Virus genome (UHGV): UHGV-0124616 | DNA: 36,013 bases | DNA from: a virus | Reading direction: 5' to 3' (one strand) | Shown: one piece after another, positions 685-5,267 of the stretch | How the letters are laid out: every line of letters begins with the position of its first letter | Position numbering within the stretch: position 1 is the stretch's first letter | The notes under the pieces: generated by a model | Told to the model about the DNA's origin: nothing | Seen by the model: the letters and a program-made list of their open reading frames with translations, nothing else | Databases searched by the model: none | Translations under genes and position numbers: made by a program

Positions 685-759
685 GGGTCAGTCGTATAAA
701 GGTCATTACGGAAGGCTGTTAACCTTCTTATCGTGGTTCGAGTCCACGCTGTCCCGCCA
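685..759 (+). tRNA. tRNA-Asn (anticodon GUU), possibly degenerate
   Basis: Hand-folded cloverleaf: perfect 5-bp anticodon stem GAAGG/CCTTC with loop CTGTTAA; T-arm CGTGG-TTCGAGT-CCACG; 3' GCCA. The acceptor stem GGGTCAG/CTGTCCC has one central mismatch and the D-stem is only 3 bp. Confidence 0.55.
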
Positions 760-764
760 AATAT

Positions 765-840
765 GCTGGTTTAGCTCCAATGGTAGAGCAGTCGCCTTGT
801 AAGCGAATGGGTAGCGGTTCAAGTCCGTTAACCAGCACCA
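765..840 (+). tRNA. tRNA-Thr (anticodon UGU)
   Basis: Hand-folded 76-nt cloverleaf: perfect 7-bp acceptor stem GCTGGTT/AACCAGC; D-arm GCTC-CAATGGTA-GAGC; anticodon loop CTTGTAA; T-arm AGCGG-TTCAAGT-CCGTT; discriminator A plus CCA. Confidence 0.7.
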
Positions 841-1082: not shown

Positions 1083-1406
1083 ATGAAGATGCCAGAAAAA
1101 CATGACCTGTTAGCCGCCATTCTCGCGGCAAAGGAACAAGGCATCGGGGCAATCCTTGCGTTTGCAATGGCGTACCTTCGCGGCAGATATAATGGCGGTG
1201 CGTTTACAAAAACAGTAATCGACGCAACGATGTGCGCCATTATCGCCTGGTTCATTCGTGACCTTCTCGACTTCGCCGGACTAAGTAGCAATCTCGCTTA
1301 TATAACAAGCGTGTTCATCGGCTACATCGGTACTGACTCGATTGGTTCGCTTATCAAACGCTTCGCTGCTAAAAAAGCCGGAGTAGAAGATGGTGGAAAT
1401 CAATAA
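1083..1406 (+). CDS. S: Holin, lambda S type (class I)
   Basis: 107-aa ORF with the Met-Lys-Met dual-start motif (MKMPEKHD...) and near-identity to lambda S as recalled. Upstream leader 841-1082 also matches the lambda S upstream region as recalled. Confidence 0.95.
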
Positions 1407-1866
1407 TCAACGTAAGGCGTTCCTCGATATGCTGGCGTGGTCAGAAGGAACAGATAACGGACGGCAGAAAACCAGAAATCACGGTTATGATGTTATTGTC
1501 GGTGGCGAGCTGTTCACTGATTACTCCGATCACCCCCGCAAACTTGTCACGCTAAATCCGAAACTCAAATCAACAGCCGCCGGACGTTACCAGCTTCTTT
1601 CCCGTTGGTGGGATGCCTATCGTAAGCAGCTTGGCCTGAAAGACTTCTCTCCGAAAAGCCAGGACGCTGTGGCATTGCAGCAGATTAAAGAGCGTGGCGC
1701 TTTACCGATGATTGATCGCGGTGATATTCGTCAGGCAATTGACCGTTGCAGCAATATCTGGGCTTCACTGCCGGGCGCTGGTTATGGTCAGTTCGAGCAT
1801 AAGGCTGACAGCCTGATTGCAAAATTCAAAGAAGCAGGCGGAACGGTCAGAGAGATTGAGGTATGA
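1390..1866 (+). CDS. R: Endolysin, lambda R-type lytic transglycosylase
   Basis: 158 aa, [39 protein letters not shown]..., near-identical to lambda R as recalled. Overlaps the S stop. Confidence 0.95.
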
Positions 1867-2300
1867 GCAGAGTAACCGCGATTATCTCCGCTCTGGTTAT
1901 CTGCATCATCGTCTGTCTGTCATGGGCTGTTAATCATTACCGTGATAACGCCATCTCCTACAAAGAGCAGCGCGATAAAGCCACATCCACAATCGCTGAC
2001 ATGCAGAAGCGTCAACGTGATGTAGCAGAACTTGACGCCAGATACACAAAGGAGCTTGCTGATGCTAACGCGACTATCGAAAGTCTCCGTGCTGATGTTT
2101 CTGCTGGTCGTAAGCGCCTGCAAGTCGCCGCCACCTGTGCAAAGTCAACGACCGGAGCCAGCGGCATGGGCGATGGAGAAAGCCCAAGACTTACAGCAGA
2201 TGCTGAACTCAATTATTACCGTCTCCGAAGTGGAATCGACAGAATAACCGCGCAGGTTAACTACCTGCAGGAATACATCAGGACGCAATGCCTTCGATGA
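1863..2300 (+). CDS. Rz: Spanin inner-membrane subunit Rz (i-spanin)
   Basis: 145 aa with an N-terminal TM segment ([17 protein letters not shown]) and coiled-coil remainder. ATGA overlap with R. Synteny S-R-Rz. Confidence 0.9.
2062..2247 (+). CDS. Rz1: Spanin outer-membrane lipoprotein Rz1 (o-spanin), embedded in Rz in +1 frame
   Basis: Internal ATG at 2062 with RBS GGAG 7 nt upstream. Signal peptide [20 protein letters not shown] with lipobox-like VSAC, followed by a proline-rich mature part. Lies entirely inside Rz. Confidence 0.8.
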
Positions 2301-2474: not shown

Positions 2475-2498
2475 AGCCTCGCATTCGCGGGGCTTTTT
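2475..2498 (+). terminator. Rho-independent terminator downstream of the lysis cassette
   Basis: Hairpin GCCTCGC-ATTC-GCGGGGC followed by TTTTT. The same 16-nt core recurs inverted at 23457-23472. Confidence 0.5.
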
Positions 2499-2642
2499 AT
2501 ATCTGAATTTCACAGCGCATCTCACGCGCATATTAACGAGAGCCTTTCAGTAAGCGAGCCTGAGAAATGCCGTTATAGGTGGCGACCTCTCTCGGGCGGC
2601 TTTTCTGTGAGACAGGCTCACTTTCTAAAAGGTAAAGACGCT

Positions 2643-3167
2643 ATGAATAATCATTCAGTTATTCCAGCCTTCGACTTCCGAGAAATGGTGCAAGCCAAAA
2701 ACGGAGAGGTCGTTACCACATCCAGAAAAATTGCCAAGTACTTCGGCAAGCGACACGGTGATGTTCTCAGGAAAATCGAGCAGGTTAAGGCTGATTGCTC
2801 GCGTGAGTTTAGCCAACGCAATTTTGCGTCGGCTGATTATATCGATGAGCAGGGCAAGGTTCGCCCGATGTACAGCCTGACGAAAGATGGCTGGATCATG
2901 GTTGTGATGGGGTTCACCGGGAAAGCTGCTGCGGCAATCAAGGAGAGCTATATCGCAGCATTCAACTGGATGGCAGAGCAACTGAGCCGCCGCATGGCAA
3001 TTGGCGAAGAAATGCAGCACCGCTACGCCATCAAAGAAACACGCTCAAAGCTGAAAGGTACGATCGGCAGTCGGTTAATGAACGAACGGAAGAAAGAGAA
3101 GCGTGTCCTGGCTGTCGAGCATGAATACATCTTGCAGGTGACGCAGCCCGAATTGCTGATTAATTGA
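2643..3167 (+). CDS. rha: Rha family phage regulatory protein (antirepressor-like)
   Basis: 174 aa from the internal ATG of ORF 2400..3167. Motif SRKIAKYFGKRHGDVLRKIE is typical of the Rha N-terminal domain. The upstream 81 codons of the track ORF are regarded as non-coding leader. Confidence 0.75.
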   Translation: MNNHSVIPAFDFREMVQAKNGEVVTTSRKIAKYFGKRHGDVLRKIEQVKADCSREFSQRNFASADYIDEQGKVRPMYSLTKDGWIMVVMGFTGKAAAAIKESYIAAFNWMAEQLSRRMAIGEEMQHRYAIKETRSKLKGTIGSRLMNERKKEKRVLAVEHEYILQVTQPELLIN

Positions 3168-3397
3168 AGATGCCATCACAAAGCCCATCTACGGGTGGGC
3201 TTGATAATGAAACCGGAATTTATTCTGGGCAACCAGTTACGGCAGTACAGCGAAACAACCCAAGCCAGTAAGTGGGGAAATAACACTGTCAGCCACTGAA
3301 AGATGAACCTCCAGCCTTATGGCAAAAAAGATTCTTTGTGGTGGCGGACTGATGGAAAGACATCCTAATCAAGCAACCACTCTACAGGGTCATAATT

Positions 3398-3769
3398 ATG
3401 AACGACCAGCAAATCGAAAAAGAAATCGTTGAGAAAGGCAAAACGGCACCGCGAGTTACGCCAGACCATATCGAAGGAATTATTGCTCAGGAGGCATATT
3501 TCACAGCAGAGGATGGTGCCTTTGGCAAAGCCATAAAAGAGAAACATACTGGCGGAGAGGTAAACTACCAGCCGCACGAATCACTTTCTCTGCTGACGTT
3601 CTGCGTCCTGGTGCTGCGCAACGGCTTCACCGTCACCGGAGAGAGTGCCTGTGCAAGTCCGGAAAATTTTGATGCAGAAATTGGTCGGAAGATTGCCCGG
3701 CAGAATGCTGTAAACAAAATCTGGATGCTCGAAGGTTACTTGCTGAAGCAGAAGCTAAGCGAACAGTAG
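3398..3769 (+). CDS. Hypothetical phage protein (possibly Sf6 gene 66 / N4 gp49 family)
   Basis: 123-aa ORF in the lysis-to-terminase accessory slot. Family assignment is from memory of the Sf6 gene order and is unverified. Confidence 0.45.
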   Translation: MNDQQIEKEIVEKGKTAPRVTPDHIEGIIAQEAYFTAEDGAFGKAIKEKHTGGEVNYQPHESLSLLTFCVLVLRNGFTVTGESACASPENFDAEIGRKIARQNAVNKIWMLEGYLLKQKLSEQ

Positions 3770-3872
3770 TTATTACAAAAGCCATTCCTTACTGAGTGGC
3801 TTTGATAATGGCTTATACCCTACACGGGATAACTTAACTGATATCCCTTTTAACGGATAAACGGAGCCAACA

Positions 3873-4115
3873 ATGGCAGAGATTATTCCCATGACTGAAG
3901 AACAGAAATTCCAGTTAGAGATTTACAAGCTGGTCATGAACCAGAACGCAGCCGCAGAAGAAGCATTTCAGTTCATTGGTACTGACGAGCTGAAGCTTGA
4001 GCTATTCAAAATTCACTTCCAGTCAGGCGGCGCTAATTCAGATATCACGACCCGCACTATCGAAGCGGTGCGTAAATCGAAGGAAGCGTTAGACCTGTTC
4101 ACCGCTGGAGTGTGA
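3873..4115 (+). CDS. Hypothetical protein (80 aa), first gene of a tightly coupled 3-gene cassette
   Basis: RBS GGAG 7 nt upstream. Stop at 4113-4115 is 1 nt before the next ATG at 4117. Confidence 0.5.
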   Translation: MAEIIPMTEEQKFQLEIYKLVMNQNAAAEEAFQFIGTDELKLELFKIHFQSGGANSDITTRTIEAVRKSKEALDLFTAGV

Positions 4116-4116
4116 T

Positions 4117-4506
4117 ATGGCTAAGGCCAAATGGCACAAACTCCCGGCGTTCACCATTCCGCTGTTTCAAAGTGCACACGTCTACCTCGCAACAACCAGA
4201 GAACAGTTTCAGCACGCTGATAAATTCCTTGGCGGCAGCGGGGATGAGAAGCCATTCAATCTTGGGCTTGCAAGCAGCTATGAAAACACTGATACGGGTG
4301 AGCGATGCTATCTGATTGGAGTATTCGATCAGCAGATCGCTACGCTCGTTCATGAGTGCGCCCACGTCTGCTTTTACGTTTGCTCTGATGTCGGCGTGAC
4401 GACAAGGCCTGAAGATGCCAACGAGACGTACTGTTACATGCTGGACAGGATGGTTAATCACTTCCTGCCATTCATTCAGGAGAAACAAGATGCATCACTG
4501 GAATAA
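4117..4506 (+). CDS. Hypothetical protein with HExxH motif (HECAH); possible small zinc metallopeptidase-like protein
   Basis: 129-aa ORF with RBS GGAG. Contains ...IATLVHECAHVCFYVC..., a zincin-like HExxH signature. No recognizable homolog from memory. Confidence 0.5.
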   Translation: MAKAKWHKLPAFTIPLFQSAHVYLATTREQFQHADKFLGGSGDEKPFNLGLASSYENTDTGERCYLIGVFDQQIATLVHECAHVCFYVCSDVGVTTRPEDANETYCYMLDRMVNHFLPFIQEKQDASLE

Positions 4507-4684
4507 TCAATCCCCTTATTGCCAATGCCAACGCTGCCCGTGCTGCGGGAAGATTGTTAACCAATTTACTGGCAACAATTTCTTCAAGACTGGTTATGGA
4601 TATGGTGTTGCGGGTAGCATTAATTGCTCTGGGGCTGCTGCTGAAACGACATCAAACACAGGCAAGCAGGAAGGAGCTAAGTAA
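4490..4684 (+). CDS. Small Cys-rich protein (64 aa), putative zinc-ribbon
   Basis: Internal ATG of ORF 4415..4684 with strong RBS AGGAG 7 nt upstream. CQCQRCPCCGK motif. Overlaps the 3' end of the HExxH gene by 17 nt. Confidence 0.4.
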   Translation: MHHWNNQSPYCQCQRCPCCGKIVNQFTGNNFFKTGYGYGVAGSINCSGAAAETTSNTGKQEGAK

Positions 4685-4778
4685 TGGTAATCAACGTTTG
4701 TTCAGGCTCTCAGGGCTTCGACAACCCATCCAAATTCCGCGATGAATGGGATAAGCAAGCAGAAGGGAAATAATCAAT

Positions 4779-5267
4779 ATGGCAGCACCAAAGGGCAACC
4801 GATTTTGGGAGGCCCGCAGTAGTCATGGGCGAAATCCTAAATTCGAATCGCCTGAGGCGCTGTGGGCTGCTTGTTGTGAATACTTCGAGTGGGCTGATGA
4901 TAACCCGTTATGGGAGGGTAAGGTATTTTCATATCAGGGAGAAATAATTAAGGCTAATGTCCCTAAGATGCGAGCCATGACTATTTCAGGATTGTGTACC
5001 TTCCTTGATATCACCAGGCAAACATGGGGAACCTTCCGGTCAATGGAAGGTTTTTCTGACGTCACATCACGAGCGGAAGACATCATCTACGACCAGAAAT
5101 TCTCTGGCGCAGCCGCTGACCTTCTCAACGCTAACATCATCGCCCGTGATTTGGGCCTCAAAGAGCAGTCGCAAGTTGAAGACGTGACACCTGATAAGGG
5201 AGATCGCGATAAGCGACGCTCTCGTATCAAGGAGCTATTCAACCGTGGAACTGGACGCGATTCTTGA
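4779..5267 (+). CDS. Terminase small subunit (P22 gp3-like)
   Basis: 162 aa, same length as P22 gp3. Lies immediately upstream of and overlapping the large terminase. Confidence 0.85.

Follow-up and report, generated by a model that had tools for sequence, protein, structure and literature searches.

The viral genome UHGV-0124616, a DNA of 36,013 nucleotides that we refer to as the window, is a P22-like (Lederbergvirus-type) Escherichia coli prophage or phage. Upstream of the gene for its small terminase subunit (TerS) there is an array of four coupled genes of 80, 129, 64 and 29 codons, separated by 1 nt or overlapping, which we name ORF80, ORF129, ORF64 and ORF29. We suggest that ORF129 is probably a stand-alone minimal zinc metallopeptidase of the gluzincin type, a proposal that draws on its pattern of invariant residues and on its predicted structure. 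The four genes are independently exchangeable accessory modules and not one machine. The joint reading, in which mosaic pre-terminase accessory genes include a probable minimal zinc peptidase and behave as exchangeable modules, is one that we consider likely, though well short of certain.

The window was read on the plus strand and compared with the family libraries Pfam, PHROG, PADLOC and Rfam. The array and its downstream neighbours are as follows.

3873-4115, plus strand: ORF80, 80 aa; GGAG 8-11 nt upstream of the ATG
4117-4506, plus strand: ORF129, 129 aa; GGAG upstream; 1 nt from the ORF80 TGA to the ATG
4351-4365, plus strand: codons of HECAH (H79-E80-C81-A82-H83), read directly from the sequence
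4420-4425, plus strand: codons of N102-E103, E103 being the proposed third zinc ligand
4490-4684, plus strand: ORF64, 64 aa; AGGAG upstream; 17-nt overlap with the 3' end of ORF129
4520-4546, plus strand: ORF64 Cys cluster C11-Q-C13-Q-R-C16-P-C18-C19, read directly from the sequence
4684-4773, plus strand: ORF29, 29 aa; TAATG overlap with the ORF64 stop; AAGGAG upstream
4779-5267, plus strand: P22-type TerS (gp3); PF16677 GP3_package, E=8e-31; phrog_606
downstream of TerS, plus strand: P22-type large terminase subunit (TerL) and portal genes

The original prediction had drawn attention to the first three ORFs, and these are found where it placed them, with good ribosome-binding sites and with the 1-nt spacing or overlap that it described. 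It had also put them immediately upstream of TerS. This needs correction, since ORF29 (4684-4773) sits between ORF64 and TerS, with its end 5 nt short of the TerS start codon (4779).

Catalytic signature and predicted fold of ORF129

Conservation was assessed in 74 close relatives of ORF129 (alignment A2) and in 84 distant relatives at 24-50% identity (alignment A3); a third alignment (A5) represents SprT. Among the distant relatives, H79, E80, H83 and E103 are the sole invariant positions, and the invariant positions of the close relatives include these four as well as D91 and N102. E103 lies 20 residues past H83 (19 in some relatives). A HExxH motif followed by a Glu is the gluzincin arrangement, and the spacing is the same in thermolysin, where 20 residues separate H146 from E166. 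Minimal forms of gluzincins have been called 'minigluzincins'. Because E80 is invariant, we favor catalysis over mere metal binding for ORF129.

An AlphaFold model built from the family alignment has a pLDDT of 87 and a pTM of 0.81. It contains strands at residues 11-13 and 20-25, a helix at 28-37, strands at 50-56 and 63-69, and helices at 74-92 and 103-128. The HExxH motif is on helix 74-92 and E103 opens helix 103-128, so that the modelled order of elements is the one expected for a minimal zincin core. Foldseek found no match for the model in the PDB, and the sequence and structure searches gave no significant match of ORF129 to any solved zincin. BFVD, a collection of predicted viral protein structures, gave 30 matches at E<=1e-3. 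Uncharacterised phage proteins of 100-215 aa make up nearly all of them, and a few carry the label SprT-like, PolyVal metallopeptidase or metalloprotease. The idea of a minimal zinc metallopeptidase, already put forward in the original prediction from the HExxH motif, thus gains support from the four residues invariant across the family and from the zincin-like order of the model, even with no significant match to a solved structure.

ORF129 belongs to a widespread family

ORF129 adds a member to PHROG 1365, a known family without characterised proteins (HMM E=1.6e-37; profile positions 3-122 of 127 aligned with residues 1-126). It is 60-62% identical over residues 1-124 (tblastn) to Orf129 of phage L, Orf-129 of ST64T, ORF47 of ST104 and gp70 of epsilon34, all annotated as conserved hypothetical proteins. 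A word-indexed search recovered 206 clusters at 90% identity from Enterobacterales prophages, and an exhaustive profile search recovered 812 representatives (50% identity), of which 234 reach E<=1e-10. All 84 sampled distant relatives are PHROG 1365 members. The protein has a pI of 5.25 (family median 5.5-6.2) and no transmembrane segment. Where no homologs had been recognised before, relatives of the array are therefore found in DUF2560, in PHROG 1365 and among the proteins of phages L, ST64T, epsilon34 and P22.

The P22 relative is an intact PHROG 1365 member of 121-125 aa (E=1.4e-39), 34% identical to ORF129 and carrying HECAH...NETYCY. It lies at 2489-2866 (plus strand) of locus L130, which corresponds to approximately 13849-14226 of P22-pbi (AF527608) and to the same interval in BK000583. 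This interval of the immI region is on the strand of the late operon, with sieA and orf59a on its two sides. Curated P22 records have no CDS here, only an annotated promoter and terminator, and other P22-like records label the P22-type copy as a hypothetical protein. A pre-terminase copy is present alongside this one in several P22-like phages.

In other Enterobacterales prophages, homologs at 87-93% identity are located downstream of the lysis genes. In 7 of 10 inspected loci a TerS lies within three genes of the homolog, and this TerS is of quite another type (Terminase_2, phrog_1206 or DUF2280-linked). Distant members show a recurring link, by translational coupling, to genes of DNA-end processing. 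They are coupled to the large subunit Terminase_3 in L125, to Mre11-like 'DNA repair exonuclease' genes (phrog_704/phrog_284) in L126 (5381-6544) and L132 (4360-5550), to a metallophosphoesterase in L133 (4360-5625) and to RdgC in L136 (1053-1784).

Some family members have unusual forms or settings. In lambdoid mEp phages there are forms of 180-194 aa (P0116-P0120; L131 3001-3585 in phage mEp515) with a C-terminal tail that is acidic and then Lys-rich; elsewhere a Lys-rich protein of 46 aa is encoded separately, after the peptidase gene. Variant P0113, from public assemblies, is a NinF-ORF129 chimera that probably arose from a large prophage deletion. The PHROG 1365 profile also has weak matches (E ~1) to residues ~2187-2235 of 3500-aa 'virion DNA-directed RNA polymerase' chains, which are probably due to chance. 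Stand-alone members are present in 72-73 kb Klebsiella and Pseudomonas phages. We take both these phages and the polymerase chains to be N4-like.

The array is a mosaic of exchangeable modules

The gene neighborhood was counted in 83 non-redundant loci with an ORF129 homolog. DUF2560, the family of ORF80, immediately precedes ORF129 in 43 of them and immediately follows it in 5; the flanks of 33 contain no DUF2560. The gene that follows ORF129 is Dec in 21 of the 83 (the type of phage L, ST64T and epsilon34) and ORF64 in 15; other genes found here encode a 110-aa protein, the Lys-rich 46-aa protein (phrog_2423), the PF18894 PhageMetallopep protein or TerS. In Sf6 and HK620, DUF2560 occupies the slot and there is no ORF129. 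Divergence is also discordant. In L004 the identity to the window is 92% for ORF129 and 64% for ORF64, while in L048 it is 63% and 88%, which points to recombination between the two genes.

ORF64 depends on ORF129, and not the reverse. ORF129 is present in the loci of all 12 IMG/VR protein matches to ORF64, and in those of 14 of 15 IMG/VR and 6 of 6 metagenome matches to its motif; the two genes occur together in L004, L005 and L086, for example. In L045 and L142 the order is ORF129-DUF2560-ORF64-like, which places the ORF64-like gene one gene away. The exception is L119, where a protein with YCQCQRCPCCGK occurs and no ORF129 homolog was detected. This 74-aa protein (1835-2059, plus strand) has the identical string together with extra Cys pairs, and in its contig, which is viral and unrelated, its gene precedes one for a 777-aa primase/helicase-like protein. 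Perhaps the Cys motif is in itself a small module.

The end of ORF64 is formed by a 15-nt junction, GGAGCTAAGTRATGR (4669-4687), which contains a ribosome-binding site, the '...GAK' stop and the overlapping ATG. It occurs in 50 of the 142 fetched loci, and in L017, L034, L044, L052 and L055 it ends unrelated small genes, such as that of the Lys-rich phrog_2423 protein, with no ORF64 present. The junction has the look of a border that modules share, at which recombination could swap them.

These observations bear on the three-gene cassette of the original prediction, in which the DUF2560 protein, the HExxH protein and the Cys-rich protein would be inherited and act as one functional unit, for example as a protease with a zinc-ribbon partner or regulator. 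Such a unit would fit the tight coupling of the genes, the near restriction of ORF64 to loci that also have ORF129 and DUF2560, and the recurrence of the three families in a second order (L045, L142). However, the genes assort independently: most ORF129 loci lack ORF64, a large minority have flanks without DUF2560, the place of ORF64 can be taken by Dec or another gene, and DUF2560 stands alone in Sf6 and HK620. The discordant divergence in L004 and L048 and the occurrence of the YCQCQRCPCCGK protein in a replication-gene context without ORF129 (L119) are further points against a unit, and we regard it as quite improbable. The expectation that the genes co-occur with conserved starts was borne out in part. 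The ORF129 start, MAK.KW, is conserved and ORF64 is found almost only with ORF129, but ORF64 is missing from most ORF129 loci and DUF2560 from many. The further claim that the slot between lysis and terminase genes is variable agrees with the comparison of neighbors across relatives.

ORF64 and ORF29 are probably overlooked genes

Selection was estimated as dN/dS from diverged copies in public contigs. The values are 0.03-0.08 for ORF129 (copies 90-92% identical in protein and 83-86% in DNA), 0.12-0.25 for ORF80, 0.20-0.49 for ORF64 and 0.18-0.54 for ORF29, the last from few codons. On ORF129 the purifying selection is thus strong. In L004 (64% identical) and in L045/L142 (47% identical) the annotated frame of ORF64 is the only one that stays open, and the other two gain stops. 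ORF29 is called as a gene in L004 and L005. Its 15-residue core is kept with synonymous changes, and it is present without ORF64 in L056. Neither gene is annotated by PGAP in a 99.5%-identical E. coli prophage.

Two other readings of the ORF64 region were set aside. An 89-aa version that starts at 4415 is unlikely, as relatives begin at the equivalent of 4490 (ATG or GTG) and L045 has no extension. A hydrophobic 63-aa ORF in the +1 frame (4554-4745) has stops in L004 and L045. Public assemblies also contain P0126, in which a frameshift carries ORF64 into the +1 frame and joins the Cys cluster to the 63-aa ORF, and P0123, a read-through fusion of ORF64 and ORF29; the interval 130-384 of L005 is listed with these two variants and with P0113.

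ORF64 is a real, lineage-restricted small protein on the evidence of its sequence, represented by 6 protein clusters in 5.8 billion sequences and without a match in Pfam (E<=1), PHROG or PADLOC. Five Cys within nine residues (CxCxxCxCC) are followed by a low-complexity tail rich in Gly, Tyr and Asn. The string (Y/F)C.CQRCPCCGK is invariant in all relatives, including L045/L142, and the remainder drifts. It is plausible that the cluster binds metal. The CxCxxCxC pattern may resemble the start of the bacterial metallothionein SmtA. AlphaFold gives a pLDDT of 41 and no secondary structure, and therefore the structure says nothing about a zinc ribbon. The earlier description of ORF64 as zinc-ribbon-like does not hold up well, given one compact cluster in place of two separated CxxC knuckles and an hhalign probability of 1.3% against the SprT zinc ribbon.

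It could be argued that ORF64, ORF29 or both are not genes and arose by chance in a non-coding spacer or recombination linker that is conserved ahead of TerS. The missing PGAP calls, the unfolded AlphaFold model of ORF64, the variants P0126 and P0123, and the 3' junction GGAGCTAAGTAATGG as a shared module border would be in keeping with this. Against it, each ORF has a good ribosome-binding site, the frame remains open in copies at 47-66% identity while other frames acquire stops, dN/dS is <0.5, the Cys motif is invariant in protein despite synonymous changes, and Rfam has no match. We give the chance-ORF explanation little credence and conclude from the sequence comparisons that ORF64 and ORF29, which annotation pipelines skip, are probably real genes.

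A non-coding explanation of the array as a whole was likewise rejected. Inside it there is no Rfam match or notable repeat, and no promoter-like or terminator-like site was found on the plus strand within 3873-4778. The opposite strand has one weak promoter-like match (4531-4503), below the chance expectation.

ORF80 and the surrounding genes

ORF80 is a DUF2560 protein (PF10834, E=1.1e-43, 147.7 bits against a cut-off of 25, profile 1-72 fully covered). It matches phrog_571, is of the Sf6 gp67/HK620 hkbM type, carries the RefSeq label 'DUF2560 family protein', and its product is predicted to be acidic and soluble. The DNA of 3800-4800, mostly the DUF2560 part, is found in 2540 of 5426 complete E. 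coli genomes. A literature search found no paper on DUF2560 function; the 'orf80' of a Listeria terminase-inhibitor preprint is an unrelated gene. All four products of the array are predicted to be soluble and to lack a hydrophobic segment.

The other features upstream of the array are these.

5' part of the window, plus strand: Q-type antiterminator ORF
685-840, plus strand: tRNA-Asn(GTT) and tRNA-Thr(TGT), between the antiterminator gene and the holin gene
1083-2300, plus strand: holin, endolysin and Rz
after the lysis genes and ahead of the hairpin at 2475-2494, plus strand: 50-aa ORF
2475-2494, plus strand: terminator-like hairpin upstream of the array
2640-3167, plus strand: Rha-family gene
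3398-3769, plus strand: N4-gp49/Sf6-gp66-family gene, 123 aa, just upstream of ORF80

According to the phage L genome paper, a tRNA-Asn/tRNA-Thr pair is present at the equivalent position of Sf6. The gp66-family protein is labelled 'anti-CRISPR protein' in the record of Escherichia phage Huey and 'hypothetical' elsewhere. Its gene is flanked by short pieces (3319-3363 and 3770-3829) that equal or resemble the N-terminus of ST64T orf118, which is a DUF2560 protein of longer form. These pieces are mosaic scars, as in the misc_feature of the epsilon34 annotation. PADLOC models gave no match at E<=1 for ORF80, ORF129, ORF64, ORF29 or the gp66-family protein, and membership of the array genes in a defence system was rejected on this basis.

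Proposed role and alternative explanations

We infer zinc binding, catalysis, timing and target of ORF129 as follows. The region is a variable 'pre-terminase' part of the late operon, and its four genes, translationally coupled, would be read from the late transcript. Late expression is suggested by analogy with phages L and P22, for which the late-operon placement is described (PMC8022706). ORF129 would be a gluzincin-type zinc endopeptidase, soluble and located in the cytoplasm, made late and dispensable for the basic P22-type life cycle. Its zinc would be held by H79 and H83 on one helix and by E103 at the start of the next, E80 would act as the general base that activates water, and the strand at 63-69 would dock the substrate chain. 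Most likely it would trim or destroy a host or phage protein as DNA packaging begins. On the target we can only speculate, and we rank counter-defence, aimed at a host factor that disturbs late functions, above the removal of proteins stuck on the DNA to be packaged. ORF64 rides downstream of ORF129 and may be a partner, but ORF129 clearly manages without it.

Several points weigh against this proposal. The targets are guesses from context. The searched literature yielded no experiment on any PHROG 1365 member, and we found no paper on Orf129 or on small SprT-like phage proteases. Virion proteomics of phage L detected 22 phage proteins, of which 13 are named, and Orf129 is unmentioned, which speaks neither for nor against its association with the virion. 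Finally, the match of ORF129 to the Pfam family SprT-like (PF10263) reaches 12.7 bits against a cut-off of 25.6 and covers residues 73-91 only.

That weak match raises the question of whether ORF129 is instead a SprT/Wss1-type DNA-dependent protease that clears DNA-bound or cross-linked proteins before packaging, with ORF64 as its detached ribbon. Sub-threshold SprT-like matches are found in 47 of 74 close and 15 of 84 distant members (best E=1e-4 among 158 relatives), a few BFVD neighbors are labelled SprT-like, relatives adjoin terminase, Mre11-like 'DNA repair exonuclease' and RdgC genes, and the 'C.CQ' at the start of the SprT ribbon (A5 consensus) is superficially like ORF64. But every Pfam score is under the gathering threshold. 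In hhalign, A3 against A5 gives a probability of 12.3%, with the aligned stretch N-terminal and outside the HExxH active site (the SprT alignment being of low diversity), and ORF64 reaches only the 1.3% given above. In A5 the third invariant residue is a His (H95) about 12 residues after HExxH, whereas the ORF129 family has a Glu 20 residues after the second His. ORF129 and its family are also acidic and have no evident DNA-binding region. With both halves of a split SprT failing against real SprT proteins, we reject this explanation as very unlikely. Because of the low hhalign probability, the unaligned active sites and the Glu in place of the SprT His, we treat ORF129 as a zincin-like family of its own. 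Kinship with the PF18894 PhageMetallopep family was also rejected (hhalign probability 1.4%). The PF18894 protein (L018 and L026, 3376-4014; L126, 8122-8775) is often encoded directly upstream of a DUF2280-type TerS and has the PHROG label 'transposase'; in L018 and L026 its gene directly follows the ORF129 homolog, which puts two different putative metallopeptidases in a row.

Nor does it seem probable that ORF129 binds zinc without being a protease, whether it serves in structure or regulation or survives as an inactive relic. Its very small size and the lack of a significant match to any solved peptidase are compatible with such a role, as is the conservation of C81, C89 and C106 in the close subfamily (A2). 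These Cys residues are not kept in the wider family (A3), however, where E80, which is needed for catalysis and not for metal binding, is invariant and only the three ligands besides it are. A different target is envisaged if ORF129 is a counter-defence protease like ArdC or the 'polyvalent' metallopeptidase domains, and destroys an immunity protein of the host, such as one that responds to terminase, portal or capsid. We think this possible though unlikely. It is suggested by the patchy accessory distribution in a known variable slot, by neighboring genes whose products commonly trigger defence, by the one BFVD neighbor labelled PolyVal metallopeptidase and by the P22 paralog beside sieA in the immI region. 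Against it, ORF129 would be late while most known counter-defence genes are early, and PADLOC gave no match, although none is expected for an anti-defence gene. We found neither an HMM match of ORF129 to PF18818 nor a structural match to ArdC, membership of the ArdC/PolyVal family itself not having been tested. A more far-reaching version of the peptidase proposal would make PHROG 1365 an unrecognised class of minimal gluzincins, with a fold variant unrepresented in the PDB. Phages would keep its members beside genes for DNA packaging or DNA-end processing (terminase, Mre11-like exonuclease, RdgC), where they would clear or destroy a specific protein as packaging starts, be it a host defence factor directed against terminase or portal or a protein lodged on the DNA. 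ORF64 would, in the lineage of the window, be the dedicated partner, for instance as a cysteine-switch inhibitor, metal donor or substrate. We consider this combination rather unlikely.

Implications

The result is mainly a correction of annotation. For the family in phages L, ST64T, epsilon34 and P22 and in hundreds of Enterobacterales prophages, we propose that 'putative minimal zinc metallopeptidase (HExxH + Glu)' replace 'hypothetical protein', and ORF64 and ORF29 can be added as overlooked genes. The three-gene 'cassette' is not a new system, and the region is an ordinary mosaic accessory stretch. If the peptidase proposal is true, ORF129 would be among the smallest stand-alone zincins and would inform the minimal catalytic scaffold. 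If the protease is active, its target would reveal what phages remove late, near the time of packaging, and the well-developed genetics of P22 and phage L would ease testing of that target.

Comparison with known systems

The thermolysin-type gluzincins share with the ORF129 family the HExxH motif and an invariant Glu 20 residues after the second His. Their order of sheet, backing helix, active-site helix and Glu helix is also predicted for ORF129. The ORF129 family differs in having only about 120 residues and no further domain. The SprT-like family (SprT, Wss1, SPRTN) likewise has a small HExxH domain, but in SprT a zinc ribbon is fused to it, whereas ORF129 has no fused ribbon and ORF64 is no ribbon. 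A zinc ribbon consists of two CxxC knuckles split by a beta-hairpin, in contrast to the single compact cluster of ORF64. The PF18894 PhageMetallopep protein is, like ORF129, an uncharacterised phage HExxH protein encoded upstream of TerS; at about 212 aa it represents a distinct family.

The closest counterparts are the proteins of phages L, ST64T, ST104 and epsilon34, which are like ORF129 in length, in the MAK.KW start and in the HECAH...NETYCY motifs. Their genes also take the slot of ORF129, after DUF2560 and before the gene or genes that precede TerS. The C-terminal tail of ORF129 in the window is 6 residues longer than in these named homologs and overlaps the start of ORF64. The next gene is Dec in phages L, ST64T and epsilon34, and ORF64 followed by ORF29 in the window. 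Other occupants of the slot, including the Lys-rich 46-aa gene and genes that precede Dec, have the 3' junction GGAGCTAAGTAATGG in common with ORF64. Dec is an OB-fold capsid decoration protein (PMC6449081). It has the same slot and the same translational coupling as ORF64 and ORF29, but nothing marks these as virion proteins, and they are unrelated to it in sequence.

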